A DNA stretch of 64,000 nt, from contig MFNV01000002.1 of the NCBI GenBank assembly GCA_001782165.1, forward strand, positions 81,002-145,001. The letters run 5' to 3'. Position 1 is the stretch's first letter, and each line of letters starts with the position of its first letter. The DNA is from Candidatus Levybacteria bacterium RIFCSPHIGHO2_01_FULL_41_15. Lineage in GTDB: Bacteria; Patescibacteriota; Microgenomatia; Levybacterales; UBA12049. The translations under genes and the position numbers were made by a program. Positions 2,902 to 60,361 of this stretch are shown here, in pieces. The notes under the pieces are model-generated. The model ran no database searches. It saw only the letters and a program-made list of their open reading frames with translations, and was not told where the DNA came from.

Positions 2902-5154
2902 TCAATCAAAGTTTGTTCTTTTAAGAAGTAAGGAATTCAGGACAACTGAAATCGAGGATGTTGCCATTGCCAAAGATGCAAATATCGGATTAAGAAGAAT
3001 CCCAAAAAAGGGATACAAAGCACCCATAGCAACAGGAATTAAACTTATATTATAACCAAAAGCCCAGAATAGATTTAATTTTATTGTTCTCATGGTTTTT
3101 TTAGAAAGTTCAATTGCTTTTGCTACAGATCTTAAGTCTTTATTTACAAGCGTTATATCCGCCGCTTCAATTGCTACATCTGTCCCCGAGCCAATAGCAA
3201 TTCCCACATCTGATGCGGCAAGTGCGGGAGCATCGTTTATCCCGTCTCCTACCATTGCAACTGTCTTTCCCTCTTTTTGAATGTTCCTCACCTCTTTTTC
3301 TTTATCCTCCGGTAGAACTTCCGAGAGCACTCTTTTTATTCCGACTTTTTGAGCTATCGCACTTGCGGTTCTTTGATTGTCTCCTGTAATCATTACAACT
3401 TCAATGCCTCTTTTATAAAGTGCTTTGACTCCTTCTGATGCAGTTTCTTTCAGGGTATCAGCTACAGCAATAAGACCCTTTAGTTCCTTGTTAACGGCAA
3501 GTATCATAACTGTTTTTCCCCCATTTTCAAGCGCCTCTACTTTATCTTCCTGTCCTTTAATTGAGATATTTTCTTTTTCCATTAGTTTCCGATTGCCTAA
3601 AAGAATGTTTTGTCTTTCGATAGTTCCCCTTACGCCAAATCCCGGAATTGCCTTAAACTGTGAAACTTTTTCAAGTTTCATGTTTTGCTCCTCGCTCTTT
3701 TTTACGATTGCTTCGGCAAGCGAATGTTCTGACCCTTTTTCCAAAGATGCCGCAAGTTGCAGCACCGACCTAGCAGGTCCGAAGCCTTTGACCTGCGAAG
3801 TCGAAACAATGTCTGTCACTTCAGGCTTCCCTTTTGTAAGGGTTCCAGTCTTGTCAAAAATTACCGTATCTATCTTATGAGCTGTTTCAAGGCTTTTTGC
3901 ATCTTTTATAAGAATTCCGTTCTCCGCTCCTCTACCTGTCCCTACCATAATAGCTGTCGGAGTTGCCAAGCCCATGGCGCAAGGGCAGGCGATGATAAGA
4001 ACTGCGACAGTATTAAGCATTGCAAACAGAAATGAAGGTGTGGGTCCTAGGATATACCAGAGGGCAAACGTAATGATTGCGAGTATGATTACAATTGGAA
4101 CGAAATAAGAGGAAACCAAGTCTGCCAATCGTTGAATCGGAGCCTTAGATCCCTGAGCCTCCTCTACAAGTTTTATAATTTGCGAAAGCATAGTTTCCTG
4201 TCCTACCTTGGTGGCTTTATAAACAAAAGTTCCGGTTTTATTGATGGTTGAGCCAATCACAGTATCCCCTTTTGTTTTATCAGACGGGATACTTTCTCCT
4301 GTTACCATTGATTCATCAACTGAGGAATCACCTTCCAAAATTTCTCCATCAACCGGTATCTTCTCACCCGGTCTTACCCTGATAACATCACCTATAACTA
4401 CTTGTTCTATAGGAATATCTACTTCTTTTCCCTTTCTTAATACTCTTGCTGTTTTAGCTTGCAGCCCAATTAATTTTTTGATTGCTTCAGATGTGCCAGC
4501 TTTAGCTTTGGCTTCAAAGTATCTACCCAATAAAATTAAACCAATAATAATAGTTGCTACGTCAAAATAAGGAGCAGGTTCAACCCCTATGTTTTTAACA
4601 ACCTGCGGAAAGACAGTAACAAAGGCAGAATAGAAATAAGCAACGGTTGTACCTATGGTAACAAGAGTATCCATGTTGGCAGTTCTGTGTTTGAGGGCAG
4701 GAATCGTGGCTCTGTAAAATTCAAATCCTGCCCAAAATTGTACAGGCGTTGCAAGAAGAAGTTGAATCCAAAAATTTTTCAAAATCAAAGGAGCAGTTTC
4801 TATAAGGGCCGGAAAGCTTCCCCAAACTAAGAATGTGCCTATGATAAGGCTTAAGCTTACTTTGTTTCTTAATTTTCTGATTTCTCTTAGTTTTTCTTTT
4901 TTTTCTTCATCTTCTATTGCCTCTCCTTGGTTTAAAATAGCTTCATATCCTACACTTGCTACTGCTGAAGAAAACTCTCTGTCCCCTGCTTTGTTAGGAT
5001 TATAGGTAACGGTTGCCTTTTCAGTTGCAAGATTTACATTAGCATCACTCACTCCCTCAATTTTTTTAAATGTTTCCTCAAGTATCCGCACGCATGATGC
5101 GCAATGCATGCCCTTTATTAAAAAGCTCCGCTTGGTCAATTGGTTGTTTAACAT
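2902..5154 (-). CDS. copA: copper-translocating P1B-type ATPase
   Basis: N-terminal HMA domain GMHCASC, CPC motif ([11 protein letters not shown]), DKTGTLT phosphorylation site, [10 protein letters not shown] hinge. 750 aa. Confidence 0.95.
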
Positions 5155-33369: not shown

Positions 33370-35373
33370 ATGAAATTTAAATTAATTTCAAACTTTTCTC
33401 CGACAGGAGATCAACCCCAAGCTATAAAAAAGCTCTCTGAAAACATTGGAAACAATACAAGGCATCAGGTTCTTCTTGGCGTGACAGGTTCGGGAAAAAC
33501 TTTCACTCTTGCGAATTTGATTGAGAAAGTCCAAAAGCCCACTCTTGTTATCTCTCATAACAAAACCCTTGCGGCGCAACTTTATCAAGAATTTAGGGAT
33601 TTTTTTCCAAATAATGCGGTTTGTTACTTCGTTTCTTATTATGATTATTACCAACCCGAGGCATATATTCCCCAGACAGATACATATATTGAAAAAGAAA
33701 CAGAAATAAACGAGGAAATAGATAAGCTTAGATTGTCGGCAACCGCAAATCTTTTAGCAAGAAACGATGTAATTGTGGTTGCATCCGTTTCCTGCATTTA
33801 TAATTTGGGATCACCTGTTGAATACGGTAAGTTTATTCTTGAGGCAAGAAAAGGAATGAGGGCATCATTGAGAAGCCTTGTGCTAAGACTTGCGGACCTT
33901 CAGTATGAAAGAAATGAATACACTGTAAAACGCGGAGTCTTCAGAGTAAGAGGCAGCAGCATTGATCTTTTCCCTTCATATTCCGACTTTGGGTTAAGAT
34001 TGGAAACCAAAGAAGACTTTCTGACAGGTATTCAAGAATTTGATCCTCTGACCGGAAATACTATCGCATCACCTCAGGCTTCTGTGATATACCCTGCAAA
34101 GCACTATATGACAGACCCTAAGACTTACGGGCAAGTTTTTAAAGAAATTAAAAAAGACCTTAAAAACAGAGTTTTAGAATTGCGAAATCAGGGAAAAGAG
34201 CTTGAAGCTCATAGACTTATTCAAAGAACCAATTTTGATCTTCAGATGATACGAGAGGTAGGATATGTAAACGGAATAGAAAATTATTCAAGGTACTTTG
34301 AAGGAAGAAATCCGGGAGAACCTCCTTATACCCTTCTTGATTATTTTGATCAAGGACGCCCCAGTAAAGACTGGCTTTGCATAATAGATGAATCGCATAT
34401 CAGTCTACCCCAAATCCGGGGAATGTATAGAGGCGATAGGGCAAGAAAAGAAGTTCTTATAGATTATGGATTTAGGCTTGCCTCAGCTCTTGATAACAGG
34501 CCCCTAAAATTTGAAGAATTCAATCGAAAAATGCCGCAATTTATCTATGTAAGCGCAACCCCCTCAGATTATGAGCTGTCTTTGGCAAAAGAATATAAAA
34601 ACGGAGTAGTCCAACAATTAATAAGGCCGACCGGACTCATCGATCCGAAGATCACCATTAAACCTGCTAAGGGACAGATTAATGGTCTCATATCAGAAAT
34701 TAAAAAAAGGGCAAAAAAGAAGGAGAGAACTTTGGTTACAACACTTACCAAAAGGATGGCAGAAGATTTGTCATCGTTTCTTGAGGCAAAAGGATTAAAA
34801 ATTTCGTACCTTCATTCCGATATTGCAACCTTAGACCGTCAGGATGTGTTGGATAAACTTCGCCTCGGTGATTACGATGTAATAGTCGGAATAAATCTCT
34901 TAAGAGAAGGCCTTGATCTTCCCGAAGTCTCATTGGTAGCAATTCTTGATGCGGACAAAGAGGGATTCCTAAGGAGCAAAACGTCTTTGATTCAAACAAT
35001 GGGAAGAGCGGCAAGACACATAAATGCCGAGGTTATATTGTATGCGGATAATATAACTTCTTCTATGAGTAGAGCAATAAAAGAAGTTAAGAGAAGAAGA
35101 GCTATTCAAATTGCTTACAATAAAAAACATAACATAAAACCTAAAGGAATAAAAAAAGAAATTAGGGCAAAACTTGTTGAAAAAGAAGAGGTCGAGGATA
35201 AGGATCTTGATGTCCTTCTTTCTCTGTCTTCAAAAGAAGTCATGCTTGCGGATGAGAAAGAAATCCTAATCCGCAAACTCACATCTGAAATGAGAAAGTC
35301 GGCAAGAGAACTTGATTTTGAAAAAGCCGCAAGGATAAGAGATAGAATTAGGATTCTAAAGGAAGACTACTGA
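33370..35373 (+). CDS. uvrB: excinuclease ABC subunit B
   Basis: Helicase motifs GVTGSGKT and DESH, beta-hairpin region, C-terminal UVR domain (EKAARIRDRIRILKE). 667 aa. Confidence 0.97.
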   Translation: MKFKLISNFSPTGDQPQAIKKLSENIGNNTRHQVLLGVTGSGKTFTLANLIEKVQKPTLVISHNKTLAAQLYQEFRDFFPNNAVCYFVSYYDYYQPEAYIPQTDTYIEKETEINEEIDKLRLSATANLLARNDVIVVASVSCIYNLGSPVEYGKFILEARKGMRASLRSLVLRLADLQYERNEYTVKRGVFRVRGSSIDLFPSYSDFGLRLETKEDFLTGIQEFDPLTGNTIASPQASVIYPAKHYMTDPKTYGQVFKEIKKDLKNRVLELRNQGKELEAHRLIQRTNFDLQMIREVGYVNGIENYSRYFEGRNPGEPPYTLLDYFDQGRPSKDWLCIIDESHISLPQIRGMYRGDRARKEVLIDYGFRLASALDNRPLKFEEFNRKMPQFIYVSATPSDYELSLAKEYKNGVVQQLIRPTGLIDPKITIKPAKGQINGLISEIKKRAKKKERTLVTTLTKRMAEDLSSFLEAKGLKISYLHSDIATLDRQDVLDKLRLGDYDVIVGINLLREGLDLPEVSLVAILDADKEGFLRSKTSLIQTMGRAARHINAEVILYADNITSSMSRAIKEVKRRRAIQIAYNKKHNIKPKGIKKEIRAKLVEKEEVEDKDLDVLLSLSSKEVMLADEKEILIRKLTSEMRKSARELDFEKAARIRDRIRILKEDY

Positions 35374-35729
35374 CTGATATTTTTTACAAGCTCTATGCTT
35401 TCCAAACTTTTATCATGGTAAAGTTTTACCGAAACAGCATCTATCCGAAGGCTGTCAGGAAGATTCTTGTTCATAGTTTTATAAAAAACCGCAGTTTTTG
35501 TAATGCTTCTTAGTTTCCAAGGTGTTATTGACTCAAGGGGGGTTCCATATAGATTTCCTATCCTGGTTTTCACTTCAACAAAAACCAGGGACTCTTTTTC
35601 AATAGCAACGATATCCAGCTCTCCGTATCCTTTTCGGAAATTCCTTTCTATTATTCTGTAGCCCTTTTTTTGAAGATATTTGCAGGCTAAATCTTCGCCT
35701 ATTTTGGCTATGGGATTTGCAACCCTCAT
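35367..35729 (-). CDS. yraN: YraN family endonuclease (UPF0102)
   Basis: GEDLACKYLQKKGYRIIERNFRKGYGELDIVAIEKESLVFVEVKTR matches UPF0102. Confidence 0.85.
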   Translation of the reverse strand: MRVANPIAKIGEDLACKYLQKKGYRIIERNFRKGYGELDIVAIEKESLVFVEVKTRIGNLYGTPLESITPWKLRSITKTAVFYKTMNKNLPDSLRIDAVSVKLYHDKSLESIELVKNISQ

Positions 35730-37955: not shown

Positions 37956-38267
37956 ATGAATGAGAGAAACAGGAGACTATTTGAGCGTGGCAAATCGTAT
38001 GTTTTGACTGCAAAATTAGTTTACGGGATGTATGTATTTATTACCGTAGCTTCTACAACTGCAATTGCCGTTTCCATCCCTTCTTCGGTTTTGGAGGTTC
38101 TTCCTAAATGGGCAAATATTGCGTTGGCAACTTCAGGCGGTTTGAATTTACCCAGCTTAACCGTAGCTTTACCCAAAATGAGAAGATGGATAAAAAATGC
38201 AGACAAGGAAATTAAAGATTTTAAAAGAACTCATATTAATGTTCCGGCCGGGTCCCAAAACAACTAG
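37956..38267 (+). CDS. hypothetical small protein (one predicted TM helix)
   Basis: 103-aa ORF preceded by a tttgtagTATAAT -10-like element. No recognisable motifs. Confidence 0.3.
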   Translation: MNERNRRLFERGKSYVLTAKLVYGMYVFITVASTTAIAVSIPSSVLEVLPKWANIALATSGGLNLPSLTVALPKMRRWIKNADKEIKDFKRTHINVPAGSQNN

Positions 38268-38347
38268 ATCCACTCATTTAAAATTCTTAAGAAAATGGGA
38301 ATAATTAAAAAATAAAAAATTATTCTGATTTGCTATAATAATTAAGC

Positions 38348-54407: not shown

Positions 54408-57082
<2,675 letters not shown>

Positions 57083-57086
57083 TTGA

Positions 57087-57713
57087 TTAAGTTATACATA
57101 ATGGTTCGTTTCGTGTACAACATGGACACTCCTCAGGCTTATACAAATCTAATTTTAAAGTAATAAGAGCATCTATCTTATCCACCCCAACATCTTCCGG
57201 GCGTACATCGCCTCGATTACACAAAACAGCAACTCCAACAACAACTCCACCAACTCCTTGCACTGCGCTGATAATATCTCTAATTGACTTACCCGTAGTT
57301 AACACATCATCTACGATTAGAGCATTTTTGCCCTCAACGAGCTCGCTTAATTCGTTATTGCGAAACCGCATCCTTCCTTCTATCTTTTCGACAAACACTG
57401 CTAGAACTTCTCTGCTATTCATCCTTGATAAATGAGTTGCCGTTTTGTCCGATAAAATTACTCCACCTACTGCGGGCGCTACTACTATTCCTATGTCTTT
57501 ATCTTTAAAATCTTGTGCGATCATTTCGCAAAGATCTGAAGTATCTTTTGTATACGGATAAATTAAAGTCTTTTCCACAAATTTACTTGTATGAAGTCCT
57601 GATGCCAGCCGGAAATGGCCTTCTTGAATTACCCCAGCTCTTTCAAATATCTGTCTTACTTTTTCTTCTCGAGCTCTTTTTTCACGAGGATCTCCTTCTA
57701 GAAAGTTTGACAT
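57087..57713 (-). CDS. pyrE: orotate phosphoribosyltransferase-like type I PRTase
   Basis: GHFRLASGLHTSKFVEK (OPRT N-terminal pattern), PRPP loop ALIVDDVLTTGKSI. Unusual Cys-rich tail EECPCCTRNEPLC. Confidence 0.65.
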   Translation of the reverse strand: MSNFLEGDPREKRAREEKVRQIFERAGVIQEGHFRLASGLHTSKFVEKTLIYPYTKDTSDLCEMIAQDFKDKDIGIVVAPAVGGVILSDKTATHLSRMNSREVLAVFVEKIEGRMRFRNNELSELVEGKNALIVDDVLTTGKSIRDIISAVQGVGGVVVGVAVLCNRGDVRPEDVGVDKIDALITLKLDLYKPEECPCCTRNEPLCIT

Positions 57714-57825
57714 ACAAAACGAGACAGAGCAGAACTATTATATATTCATAGTTTTTATTGTCAATAGTTGCTCTTGAGGGTTAAATTTCATAAAATAGAC
57801 TTGTTGTCGAGTCAAACTCGGCTTC

Positions 57826-58006
57826 GCCGGAGTAACTCAGTGGTAGAGTAGCTCTTTCGCCCGCCTGCCATAGCTTGCCAGGATAGCTCAGCTGGTAGAG
57901 CAAGGCTTTCGTAAAGCCGAGGTCGTGGGTTCAAATCCCACTCCTGGCTCAGGCAAGCGGCGGACAGGTAAAGAGCAAGTCGTGGGTTCAAGTCCCACCT
58001 CCGGCT
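57826..58006 (+). tRNA. interrupted 'host' tRNA (Thr-like identity; anticodon depends on splice sites) carrying a 116-nt anticodon-loop intervening sequence that contains tRNA-Thr(CGT)
   Basis: 5' half GCCGGAG/TA/ACTC-AGTGGTA-GAGT/A/GCTCT (57826-57855). 3' half AGAGC/AAGTC/GTGGG-TTCAAGT-CCCAC/CTCCGGC/T (57972-58006). 7/7 acceptor, 4/4 D, 5/5 anticodon, 5/5 T stem pairs. T-arm nearly identical to the nested tRNA-Thr. Confidence 0.6.
57877..57949 (+). tRNA. tRNA-Thr(CGT), nested inside the intervening sequence of the host tRNA
   Basis: GCCAGGA/TA/GCTC-AGCTGGT-AGAGC/A/AGGCT-TTCGTAA-AGCCG/AGGTC/GTGGG-TTCAAAT-CCCAC/TCCTGGC/T. Anticodon CGU. G1-C72 and C2-G71 are Thr-type. Confidence 0.85.
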
Positions 58007-58059
58007 CACATTCTGTACTAAGTTTAATTGAAGTAACTCGTACTGAGTTTTATCGAAGT

Positions 58060-58776
58060 ATGAATAGGAATAAATATTCCCGCCTTTCAAAGCGGCTTGA
58101 AAAGCAGTCTCAAAAAAACCTAATATTAAGTGCTCTTGGAATACTTGTAGTTATTTTCCTTCTTGTGAAATTCGGAATTCCCCTTCTTGTAAATTTTTCC
58201 GTATTTATAGGAAGCTTGGGCAAAGCTGATGAGACCGTTAAAACCGAAACCGAAAGCTTTGTAACTGCGCCCATACTCGATATACCTTTTACTGCCACAA
58301 ACAGTGCTCAAACAAGAATAACAGGGCAGTCAACAGCAGAATCCACAGTTTCAGTTTATCTTAACGGTTCCCTTTTTGAAAAAAACGAAGTTGAGAAGGA
58401 TGGAATTTTCTCTTTTTTAATAACTTTAAATGATGGAGAAAATAGAATAAAAGCAAAAGCTGAGAAAGATAATAAAGAAAGCGACTTCTCTGATGAGCTT
58501 ATTATTATTTATCAGAATAAACCTCCATCTCTTGAGATAAAGTCGCCAACAGAAGGCCAAAAATTTGAAAAAGATCAGAACACGGTTATTGTTACCGGAA
58601 AAACAGATTCGGGAACAAGAGTAACTGTTAACAGCTTTTGGGCGCAGATTGATGAGGAAAATAATTTTTCATACAATCTGACTCTTCATGATGGAGATAA
58701 CGAAATAAAAATAATCGCAGAAGACAAAGCTGGCAATAAAACAGAAAAAAATATAAAGGTCAATTATTCTCCGTAA
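58060..58776 (+). CDS. membrane-anchored protein with two Ig-like (Big-like) beta-sandwich repeats
   Basis: Start moved to ATG at 58060 (the longer ORF overlaps the tRNA genes). TM LILSALGILVVIFLLV. Two about 90-aa repeats ending ...DGENRIKAKAEKD / ...DGDNEIKIIAEDKAGN. Confidence 0.4.
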   Translation: MNRNKYSRLSKRLEKQSQKNLILSALGILVVIFLLVKFGIPLLVNFSVFIGSLGKADETVKTETESFVTAPILDIPFTATNSAQTRITGQSTAESTVSVYLNGSLFEKNEVEKDGIFSFLITLNDGENRIKAKAEKDNKESDFSDELIIIYQNKPPSLEIKSPTEGQKFEKDQNTVIVTGKTDSGTRVTVNSFWAQIDEENNFSYNLTLHDGDNEIKIIAEDKAGNKTEKNIKVNYSP

Positions 58777-58793
58777 GTCCTTTAATGAATTGA

Positions 58794-60361
58794 ATGAATA
58801 GGAAAGTTTTTATTCCACTTTGTGTATTCATTTTATCTAGGCTTATCTTTATTAACTATCTCCCTGTTTTTTTTGATGCCCCGGAATATTTAGACAGATT
58901 TTTCAACCCTGATTACTTTAAGGCAATAATTTCCGGACATCTCCCTCTTCATATCGGGTACATCTTACTATATTGGCCAATATTCCGCTGCGCTATTTTT
59001 TTTGGGTTTAATCCTTCTCTAACAATCATTGTTGCTCAGATCTTATTATCTACCATTGGCATTTACTGCTTTTATCGTTTTATTGAAATAGTAACAAATA
59101 GAAGGATTGCCTTTATTGGATCACTTATCGCAACACTTACTCCATTGTACTGGATAATGAACGTCTCAATCATGACTGAGTCAACATATATAAATTTTTT
59201 TCTAATATCAATATTTTTTTAGCAAAATATGGAAAAGAGGAGGAACACTCTAGGATTACTCTTTTTGCTGGCTGTATATTTTTTGCCTTATCATTTCTCA
59301 CTCACCCCCTTGTCATACTATGGTTACCATTTTTAATATCTGTAATATATTTTTTTAAGAAAGAAAAGATTTTTATTACCCTTCCTGCGGTAATTATCGC
59401 CGTCATTCTAGCGGGTTTATTAAATAGTTTCTTTATTGCAAACGCCTTGAATATATCTTTTCAAAACGGAATATATAAATACTTATTTGGTCAAGGAATA
59501 GCCTTTACACCAACCATTCATTCATTTTTGACGTTAATAAGACTTATTAGAAACGCTGTTATTCCGCTCTTACAAAATAATAATTCTGTTATATTCTTTT
59601 TGGGTGCAATTTCGCTTATTCTGAAATTTAAGGATAGTAAAAAATTATTCACCGTTGGGTTTTTATGGATTATCCCAGCTCTTATTGTAAATCAATGGTT
59701 TGACTTCGACGCTCTCCTTTTTGGCCGTCATGCTGCAATCACAGGGTTTGGATTTGCATTTTTTGCCGCAATATTTTTAGAAAAAAGAAGAATATTATGC
59801 CTTTTGGTAATTTTATATGTACTGGCCTCTTCCCTACCAGCTTTGACTCTTTTAAAGCAGCCCATACCTTATCTTACCGAACAAAAATTTGTTCAACAAC
59901 TTCCTAAAGGGCTTTTGATTGAAAGTCATTTCGCACGTCCTCAGGTTCAAGGGTATTATAATGGCGAAATTATATTTACAAACGAAACAACTTTAAGTAA
60001 GAAAGAGATAGGGAGAATAATCGATAGATACCTAGATAATAACAAACCTATATTTGTTACCTCCCAAGCGCTATCTGATCCATATGGATTGTATTCGGGA
60101 CCATTTCTCCATATGATATCACTTTCTTACGTTAGGGGATATTTCCTAGAAGATGTAATCAGGCTGTATTCGCTGAACGAATACGCAACGATTGATAAAG
60201 ACGCAGGCCTTACGATATACAAAGTAATTGAGAAAACTAATTCTTCCTACCCAAACATTCAAAAATTAAAAAATAATAGACGTCAAATAGATTATTTTGA
60301 CCCTTTAAGTCGATTAATAACATCATTAAGCATATTATTATTTACTCGTTATTATCCATAA
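58794..60361 (+). pseudogene. GT-C superfamily membrane glycosyltransferase (ArnT/PMT-like) interrupted by a frameshift at a T7 homopolymer (two ORFs 58794-59222 and about 59180-60361 overlap)
   Basis: N-terminal ORF (142 aa, frame 0) and downstream ORF (frame -1, open from 59180) overlap across ATATTTTTTTAGC (T7 at 59214-59220). Joined they give an about 520-aa polytopic protein. Confidence 0.55.

Follow-up and report, generated by a model that had tools for sequence, protein, structure and literature searches.

Here we describe two tRNA genes of a Levybacteria genome, each of which is interrupted in its anticodon loop by a second, complete tRNA gene. Both lie within the window analyzed here, a 64,000-nt stretch (positions 81,002 to 145,001, forward strand) of contig MFNV01000002.1 from Candidatus Levybacteria bacterium RIFCSPHIGHO2_01_FULL_41_15; coordinates given without a locus name refer to this window. 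A third, independent case was found in another Levybacteria-type genome. In all three, the interrupting sequence sits between anticodon nucleotides 35 and 36 of the outer ("host") gene, and the inner ("guest") gene that it carries has the same anticodon as its host. We think it probable that the insert is a non-autonomous, palindrome-ended insertion element of 105-109 nt carrying a same-anticodon replacement tRNA, in which case the host gene would be dead and the guest functional. On our best reading it is to be classed as a small palindromic insertion element, or as a self-compensating tRNA-gene insertion. Full-text literature searches turned up no account of one tRNA gene lying inside another, in agreement with the novelty claimed by a first-pass annotation of the window.

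The first case is a threonine tRNA locus on the plus strand. As the first-pass annotation had noticed, a tRNA that folds perfectly has an entire second tRNA, a tRNA-Thr(CGT), in its anticodon loop. The 5' half of the host, tRNA positions 1-35, occupies 57826-57859 and comprises the 5' acceptor strand, the D arm, the 5' strand of the anticodon stem and the loop nucleotides TTCG; the part at 57826-57855 reads GCCGGAG-TA-ACTC-AGTGGTA-GAGT-A-GCTCT. The host 3' half, positions 36-73, occupies 57969-58006 and provides the loop nucleotides TAA, the 3' strand of the anticodon stem, the variable loop, the T arm, the 3' acceptor strand and the discriminator T, with AGAGC-AAGTC-GTGGG-TTCAAGT-CCCAC-CTCCGGC-T at 57972-58006. 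When the halves are joined, 7/7 acceptor, 4/4 D, 5/5 anticodon and 5/5 T-stem pairs form, and ARAGORN called a tRNA in every in-silico version of the joined gene. The intact guest tRNA-Thr(CGT), at 57877-57949, was also called by ARAGORN and scored 67.1 bits against the Rfam tRNA family (gathering threshold 29 bits). In the predicted fold of the whole 181-nt stretch (-83.1 kcal/mol, z = -5.6), one cloverleaf sits within the anticodon arm of the other, so that base pairing, gene calling, Rfam and folding all confirm the nested architecture.

The insert itself spans 57860-57968. It begins with a 5' terminal arm, CCCGCCTGC(C), at 57860-57869, an exact match to the family motif described below, and ends with a 3' terminal arm, GCGGACAGG, at 57960-57968, which the motif census places one mismatch away from the family motif GCGGGCAGG. 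The guest is separated from the 5' arm by the short leader ATAGCTT (57870-57876) and from the 3' arm by the trailer CAGGCAAGCG (57950-57959), the GGCA part of which can pair with TGCC of the 5' arm. The GC-rich flanking arms proposed in the first-pass annotation are thus present, and CCCGCCTGC(C) pairs with GCGGACAGG, or GGCA..GGCGG, in the predicted folds. The insert has a G+C content of 61%, compared with 36.8% for the genome, and contains neither an open reading frame (ORF) nor a repeat of host sequence of the attL/attR kind.

The borders of the insert and the identity of the host were obtained from intact orthologues. An alignment, made from Levybacteria only, of the immunoglobulin-like membrane protein encoded downstream was used to fetch 76 loci from species-representative genomes; loci are cited here by L numbers. 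Of the 57 Microgenomates loci scanned with ARAGORN, 51 contained a tRNA; in 49 this was tRNA-Thr(CGT), syntenic in all but one (the guest of L042). The joined host (...GCTCT-TTCG|TAA-AGAGC...) is 100% identical to the intact tRNA-Thr(CGT) genes of L044, which scored 70.0 bits against Rfam tRNA, and L055, and six more genes are 93-94% identical, establishing the host as the threonine isoacceptor that had been suspected. Because these orthologues display the host loop as TTCG|TAA, the host anticodon, judged by comparison with them, is CGT, the same as that of the guest, and the insert measures 109 nt. The 116 nt first counted is therefore correct as the distance between the two strands of the anticodon stem and too long for the insert; likewise, the stretch starting at 57856 opens with TTCGCCCGCC and not with TTTCGC. 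The four host anticodons first considered, UGU, GGU, UCG and UCU, give way to CGT, and host identities of Thr(GGU), Thr(UGU) or Arg are excluded by the intact orthologues. One ambiguous G also allows placement between positions 34 and 35 in this case. In all three nested cases, the insert edges given by intact orthologues coincide exactly with the ends of the arm motifs.

By the same comparison, the interruption is scarcely shared among relatives: of about 50 related species, some 48 lack the nested arrangement, their tRNA-Thr(CGT) being uninterrupted. This is essentially the situation, an uninterrupted host gene with the copy here disrupted, that the first-pass annotation had named as speaking against its proposal. 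In L001/L002, a relative at 76% protein identity, the same leader (...CATAAAATAGACTTGTTGYCGAGTCAAACTCGGCTT) and the same trailer (CACATTCTGTACT...) enclose an uninterrupted tRNA-Thr(CGT). The phosphoribosyltransferase encoded beside the window locus shares 99% identity with a protein from Candidatus Levybacteria RIFCSPLOWO2_01_FULL_38 (candidate phyla radiation (CPR)/Patescibacteria, Microgenomates). Among the nearest relatives, which range from 61% (downstream protein) to 82% (phosphoribosyltransferase) identity, none carries the same insertion: the contigs that reach the tRNA locus (L001/L002 and the representative-genome loci) lack it, and the contig of the 82% relative (L005) stops short of it.

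Five assemblies (one from NCBI, one from JGI and three from ENA) contain the 181-mer without a single difference, and the surrounding 2.5-4.5 kb are identical in them, with 0-1 mismatch. Since the sequence recurs unchanged in five or more independent assemblies, and since the same design is found at two further loci, an assembly artefact is ruled out. Standard gene calling does not reveal the outer gene: ARAGORN, with the intron options (-i and -i0,200) included, left the Thr host unreported and called only the inner tRNA, at 57877-57950. A deletion scan was therefore written, in which each of 87 tRNAs in 469 kb of sequence was removed together with 0-40 nt per side. A spanning host was uncovered in 3 cases and in none of the other 84, from which we conclude that the nesting is not due to chance.

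The second case, which the first-pass annotation did not include, was found by the arm-motif census and consists of a tRNA-Gly(CCC) nested in a tRNA-Gly(CCC) at 38348-38526 of the window, again on the plus strand. Its host 5' half (38348-38381; GCGGAGT-TA-GTAC-ACCGGCA-GTAT-A-CTACC-TTCC) and 3' half (38490-38526; CAA-GGTGG-AGAA-GCGAG-TTCGATT-CTCGT-ACTCCGT-T) flank a 108-nt copy of the element (38382-38489) with the organization TCCGCCTGC-ATTTGCCAT-[guest]-CAAATTAT-GGCGGGCAGG, which lies unambiguously between positions 35 and 36. The intact guest, at 38400-38472, was called by ARAGORN and scored 67.2 bits against Rfam. The joined host (split TTCC|CAA) was called as tRNA-Gly(ccc) and has four G.U pairs, two of which it has in common with the intact resident-type gene of L007; the other two are G1.U72 and U28.G42. 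The first acceptor pair (1-72) is an identity pair for glycyl-tRNA synthetase (GlyRS). The junction of the host, ...CTACCTTCC|CAAGGTGG..., is unique to this organism. A TATAAT box 8 nt upstream of the host gene (38334-38339, plus strand), read from the sequence, may serve as its promoter element.

The third case, an independent tRNA-Thr(CGT) within a tRNA-Thr(CGT), lies at 1733-1952 of L042 (JACOXT010000003.1, Candidatus Levyibacteriota NC_groundwater_160). This copy and that of L075 were reached by BLAST of the arms against all fetched loci. The host 5' part reads GCCAACG-TA-GCTC-AGTGGAA-[42-nt D-loop insert]-GAGC-A-AGTGT-TTCG and the 3' part TAA-ACACT-AGGTC-GTGGG-TTCGATT-CCCAC-CGTTGGC-T; joined, they are 97% identical to the intact gene of L043. 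Here the arms are inverted relative to the window cases, and the 105-nt insert has the organization CCTGCCCGC-AGAATATA-[tRNA-Thr(CGT), of yet another type]-CAGCTTA-GGCAGGCGGG. The 42-nt sequence in the host D loop is a double hairpin (CGGAGGCCGAAGGCCGAGTTCGCTTGCTTGACAAGCGTGGGT) that is unrelated to the element.

Comparison of these inserts defined a family of short elements with the conserved ends 5'-(C/T)CCGCCTGC ... GCGG(G/A)CAGG-3', which form an imperfect inverted repeat: at 7/9 positions, the 5' sequence CCCGCCTGC agrees with the reverse-complemented 3' end (CCTGCCCGC). The three nested inserts measure 109 nt (window Thr), 108 nt (window Gly) and 105 nt (L042), and 71-73 nt of each are tRNA. 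A census of the arm motif across the 469 kb identified 7 elements in 5 loci. The arms are strongly non-random: the chance expectation for an arm 9-mer is 0.025 per 64 kb, and 8 arm pairs were observed in the 469 kb where block shuffles gave 0.3 on average. Each of the 8 lies no more than 75 nt from a Thr-CGT or Gly-CCC gene.

Furthermore, the same arms occur in other Microgenomates as stand-alone elements of 36-70 nt that contain no tRNA. In L075 (1760-1965), an intact tRNA-Thr(CGT) is followed 25 nt on by a duplicate of its own 3' part, and the T loop of this duplicate holds two tandem hairpin copies of 36 and 40 nt exactly between C56 and G57. In L060 (1860-1930), the present tRNA-Thr(CGT) has just upstream of it what appears to be an old tRNA 5' remnant, in which a hairpin-only copy sits (CCTAAGTAAC|element|TCAGTGGCAG). 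In L010, a 70-nt copy lies in the D loop of a tRNA fragment. The orientation of the element relative to the tRNA strand is the same in both window cases and L075 and is inverted in L042, L060 and L010. The flank of the element is TTCG or TTCC on the tRNA strand and, in L042, TTTA on the element's own strand, so that, given the inversion in L042, there is no fixed oriented target of the sort used by IS200/IS605-derived PATEs or REP/RAYT elements.

The leader ATAGCTT of the Thr guest is of ambiguous origin. It matches a sequence, wAAGCTw, that recurs 3' of the 5' arm in other copies, and it also resembles the TATAATAGCTTGC leader of L013 and L015. It may be a relic of a donor promoter, but tRNA-free copies, too, have a similar wAAGCTw 3' of the 5' arm. 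A phage origin of the element was considered and rejected: in an arm-pattern scan of viral contigs, 80 of the 113 matching loci were checked, and these occurred at chance level in GC-rich phages (median 64% G+C), with no tRNA between the arms in any of them.

The guest genes belong to a sequence lineage other than that of their hosts. The Thr guest is 95-96% identical to the genes of L007, L008, L009, L010, L013 and L015 and only 82% identical to its own host; similarly, the guest of L042 shares 85% identity with the L075 type and 72% with its host. A metagenome scan with the anticodon arm of the Thr guest yielded 12 contigs. In these the guest type (GCCAGGA...) forms a gene of its own, located upstream of the one for the same membrane protein, and the proteins of these contigs are closest to proteins named Woesebacteria. 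The gene order around tRNA-Thr(CGT) is conserved across Microgenomates. The guest type is distributed in patches: it is present in L015, yet a resident-type gene is found in its 87% relative L111 and in the 77% relatives L112 and L113, and the closest relatives of L010 (L101, L105 and L109) also carry resident-type genes. By these sequence comparisons, the Thr guest of the window is of a foreign, Woesebacteria-like lineage and the host is the resident gene; the guest is presumed to be the functional gene.

Several loci form a plausible decay series of the host shell, as far as can be read from sequence. The Thr host of the window is untouched, the L042 host has the additional D-loop insert, and the Gly host of the window has G1.U72 and U28.G42. 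In L013 (reverse strand, oriented 4757-5015), a guest-type tRNA-Thr(CGT) lies between degenerate resident-type parts, with GCCGATGTAGCTCAATGGTA-[D-loop hairpins]-GAGCAGTTTG-TTTAC on the 5' side and CAAAG...TCCTTCTATCGGCT on the 3' side; this 3' part no longer has its T arm and anticodon. Only two resident-type 5' fragments remain in L010 (oriented 733-990), upstream of a guest-type gene. In L015 the guest-type gene stands alone, directly behind the TATAATAGCTTGC leader that in L013 precedes the shell. A D-loop hairpin, CCCGACAAA...TTTTGACGGG, is common to the L013 and L010 contigs and is not of the CCCGCCTGC family.

From these observations the following course of events can be proposed. The insertion would kill the host gene by parting C34-G35 from U36: with these nucleotides separated by the arm helix, decoding by the host is impossible without ligation. 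The host promoter would still drive a single transcript through both host halves and the guest. The guest would then be freed by RNase P together with the enzymes of 3'-end maturation (RNase Z or exonucleases, followed by the CCA-adding enzyme) and would take over decoding, and the host halves would be by-products that stay paired after processing of the guest. The match of anticodons may be a matter of survivorship, in that, where each anticodon is served by a single gene, an insertion would persist only if it makes good the gene it destroys; alternatively, the element may be targeted, somehow seeking its own kind. The frequent dispensability of C34 isoacceptors may help, as both hosts are C34. 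With time the host shell would decay and then be deleted, leaving a clean horizontal tRNA gene replacement. The enzyme that mobilizes the element would be encoded outside both the element and the 64-kb window.

Several observations weigh against this course of events. Both the window Thr host and the L042 host have a flawless cloverleaf, and wherever an insertion was observed in an otherwise intact tRNA gene it is at a loop apex, as would be the case for an intron removed at the RNA level. The arms occur in both orientations relative to the cargo (L042 versus the window), which is awkward for a simple transposon with captured cargo. No target-site duplication is present, the joined flanks being an intact TTCGTAA or TTCCCAA (with the 1-nt G ambiguity in the Thr cases), and no copy of the element was found outside tRNA genes in the 469 kb; for these two reasons, it is only from the distribution of copies that we infer mobility. 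Also, a Pfam scan of the window ORFs detected no transposase, integrase, RAYT, TnpA (Y1) or other mobilizing enzyme. As to the flawless cloverleaf, it is inherited from a very conserved resident gene and is thus no evidence of continued function. The sole nuclease-like protein of unknown role in the window is of the UPF0102/YraN family, with a PD-(D/E)xK nuclease fold (35367-35729, minus strand); since many bacteria have proteins of this family, we claim no link to the element.

An alternative, which we regard as unlikely, is that the insert is a new type of bacterial tRNA intervening sequence, excised at the base of the arm helix, with the halves ligated by novel machinery (an endonuclease and an RtcB-type ligase, or a trans-acting ribozyme), so that one transcript would give two functional tRNAs. 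It is about equally unlikely, on our estimate, that CPR bacteria have a hitherto undescribed tRNA splicing system in which the arm helix at 35/36 is the signal for excision and ligation, a third, protein- or trans-RNA-dependent bacterial class. Beyond the perfect cloverleaves of the window Thr and L042 hosts, this explanation draws support from the conserved helix that adjoins both junctions, from the known abundance of introns in CPR rRNA and tRNA genes and from the constant insertion site. Position 35/36 is also favored by group I introns of Patescibacteria tRNA genes (Nakagawa et al. 2026, PMC13011429), which are full-size ribozymes located after U35 and capable of self-splicing in vitro. 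The inserts described here resemble those introns in phylum, in this unusual site and in the terminal G, and differ from them in having no ribozyme core, in following G35 or C35 and in being mostly tRNA. Group I introns are preceded by U, rarely C, at position -1 and end in G (bioRxiv 10.1101/2020.01.27.920355). The last nucleotide of the insert is G in 3/3 nested cases. At position -1 the Gly case has C35, and the Thr cases have G35 or, with the ambiguous G assigned to the other side, C34; read as C throughout, this nucleotide would fit a relaxed form of the rule.

Excision and ligation of the host halves, as contemplated by the first-pass annotation, nevertheless found no support in direct searches. 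In archaeal introns, the motif known as bulge-helix-bulge (BHB) has its splice sites in two bulges of 3 nt, with a 4-bp helix between them (hBHBh') (PMC4090602). In all allowed registers of the three nested cases, an explicit motif test gave 2/4 pairs for the central helix and 0-2 of 3 pairs for the flanking helices, and a BHB intron is ruled out. Searches of 57000-59000 and 38200-38700 against Rfam returned no group I, group II or other non-tRNA family at E<=10, and at the gathering threshold the whole window gave nine tRNA matches only. Membership of a group I, group II or other Rfam family is accordingly rejected as well, typical group I introns measuring 200 nt or more, with a catalytic core (P3-P9) recognized by the Rfam Intron_gpI model, against the 105-109 nt of the inserts, of which 71-73 nt are tRNA and none such a core. 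The Pfam scan of about 50 window ORFs found housekeeping genes only, with no RtcB, EndA or reverse transcriptase, and hence no candidate endonuclease or ligase in the window. An intron would furthermore have no reason always to share the anticodon of its host. It also counts against splicing that only 2 of about 50 species have the arrangement and that related shells are clearly degenerate. The G1.U72 of the Gly host falls on the GlyRS identity pair, and the flip of arm orientation between cases is hard to square with RNA-level reading of a directional motif.

A slightly less credible alternative is that these loci are the outcome of one-off illegitimate recombination or patch repair following horizontal transfer, with foreign tRNA fragments captured in breaks of the homologous resident gene, without any dedicated mobile element, and the GC-rich arms being incidental filler or processing stems. 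The tRNA-Thr(CGT) locus is indeed a rearrangement hot spot, as seen in the island of L057, the duplicated 3' fragment of L075 and the allelic replacement between L015 and L111, and the Microgenomates-wide synteny would favor homologous replacement. It is difficult, however, to derive from such events three independent insertions with the same terminal 9-mers, the same size of 105-109 nt and the same site, arms that recur as stand-alone 36-70-nt elements in other genomes, and motif pairs in the excess over chance given above (8 against about 0.3). In L057 (1134-1320), tRNA-Thr(CGT) is followed after about 100 nt by a repeat of the last 15 nt of the tRNA (CACCTTCGGCTCAAA) and by an ORF of about 200 amino acids (to about 1936), a classical small 3'-end island; to judge from its sequence, integrating elements also use tRNA-Thr(CGT) as an attachment site.

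Finally, it is very improbable that the host halves remain functional after guest excision, as a two-piece tRNA-like RNA that supplies stable tRNA halves or acts as a decoy or regulator (for instance of threonyl-tRNA synthetase, GlyRS, the CCA-adding enzyme or RNase P), for although the architecture mirrors the split tRNA halves of Nanoarchaeum with their GC-rich complementary extensions, and all host helices are kept in the predicted folds, the arrangement is not conserved among relatives, related shells decay, and the discontinuous anticodon makes decoding impossible.

The surroundings of the Thr locus offer some further detail. A promoter-like site, TTGTCA-18-TAAATT (57758-57787, plus strand), was found upstream of the host by a consensus scan, in a region conserved in L001/L002, and is the presumed start of the single transcript comprising host 5' half, guest and host 3' half. 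Just 5' of the host gene lies a leader hairpin, CGAGT-CAA-ACTCG (57808-57820, plus strand), identical to that in the L001/L002 leader before the uninterrupted tRNA-Thr(CGT). Back to back with the promoter-like site, a perfect sigma-70 consensus, TTGACA-16-TATAAT (12/12 positions; minus strand, 57764-57737), faces the phosphoribosyltransferase gene. Listed ORFs cross the tRNA region on both strands (57925-58776 and 57812-58090); the real downstream gene most likely starts at the ATG at 58060, as in all homologues. In relatives (L001, 851-2472; L005, 254-1815), pyrF, encoding orotidine monophosphate decarboxylase, lies between the phosphoribosyltransferase gene and the tRNA-Thr locus; it is absent from the window (57087-57826), where the gap is 112 nt. 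Among intact Levybacteria tRNA-Thr(CGT) genes, several (L001 at 666-738, L027, L030 and L031) have a non-Watson-Crick T-stem pair 50-64, with GCGGG or GAGGG opposite CCCCC. In the Levybacteria-like L025 (1-242), only ...ATCGGGCTCA, a possible tRNA 3' end, precedes the membrane-protein gene; tRNA-Thr(CGT) has seemingly been lost or moved there, which is uncertain because the contig begins 242 nt upstream.

The self-compensating insertion that we favor has partial counterparts among known systems. Integrative elements that target tRNA genes, such as phages and islands, likewise hit a tRNA gene and bring a compensating tRNA sequence, by which decoding is preserved in the cell. They are kilobases long, however, and have an integrase gene of the tyrosine or serine type; a hybrid gene is restored on insertion, and the tRNA segment is left as direct repeats, whereas the element described here is about 108 nt long, has no enzyme gene and no host repeat, and nests a whole independent tRNA in its host. 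In Nanoarchaeum equitans, split tRNAs are made from halves broken in the anticodon loop, each with a GC-rich sequence complementary to its partner. A break in the anticodon loop with GC-rich complementary extensions is also found here. The Nanoarchaeum halves are separate transcription units joined by a splicing endonuclease and a ligase; the halves here share a strand and a single promoter-like site, lie 109 nt from each other and enclose another tRNA, and no joining machinery is evident in the window. Similar in general form are the REP/REPIN sequences, the IS200/IS605-derived PATEs, the MITEs, the Rickettsia palindromic elements and the mitochondrial GC clusters, which are likewise short, non-coding and richer in G+C than the genome, with imperfect inverted-repeat ends, cause no target duplication, and are sometimes tandem and sometimes inside RNA genes. 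To our knowledge, none of these small palindromic elements carries a tRNA cargo or prefers the anticodon loop of a matching isoacceptor. An archaeal parallel to the nesting as such is the BHB intron of tRNA-Trp, which contains a box C/D small RNA (PMC4090602). Archaeal BHB introns are thus also intervening sequences in or near the anticodon loop that can contain a second functional small RNA; they are found at 37/38, whereas here the host is bacterial, the site is 35/36, there is no BHB, and the nested RNA is a full tRNA with the anticodon of its host.

If our interpretation is true, these loci represent a new mechanism of horizontal tRNA gene replacement, in which a cassette of about 108 nt destroys the resident gene and delivers a foreign gene of the same anticodon in a single step, with the later stages, decay of the shell and then clean replacement, visible in related genomes. 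If instead the host were re-joined, a bacterial RNA-splicing chemistry not previously known would be revealed. Since ARAGORN and Rfam report only the guest, and 2 of the 9 tRNA loci of the window are affected, nested tRNA genes may be systematically overlooked in CPR genomes.

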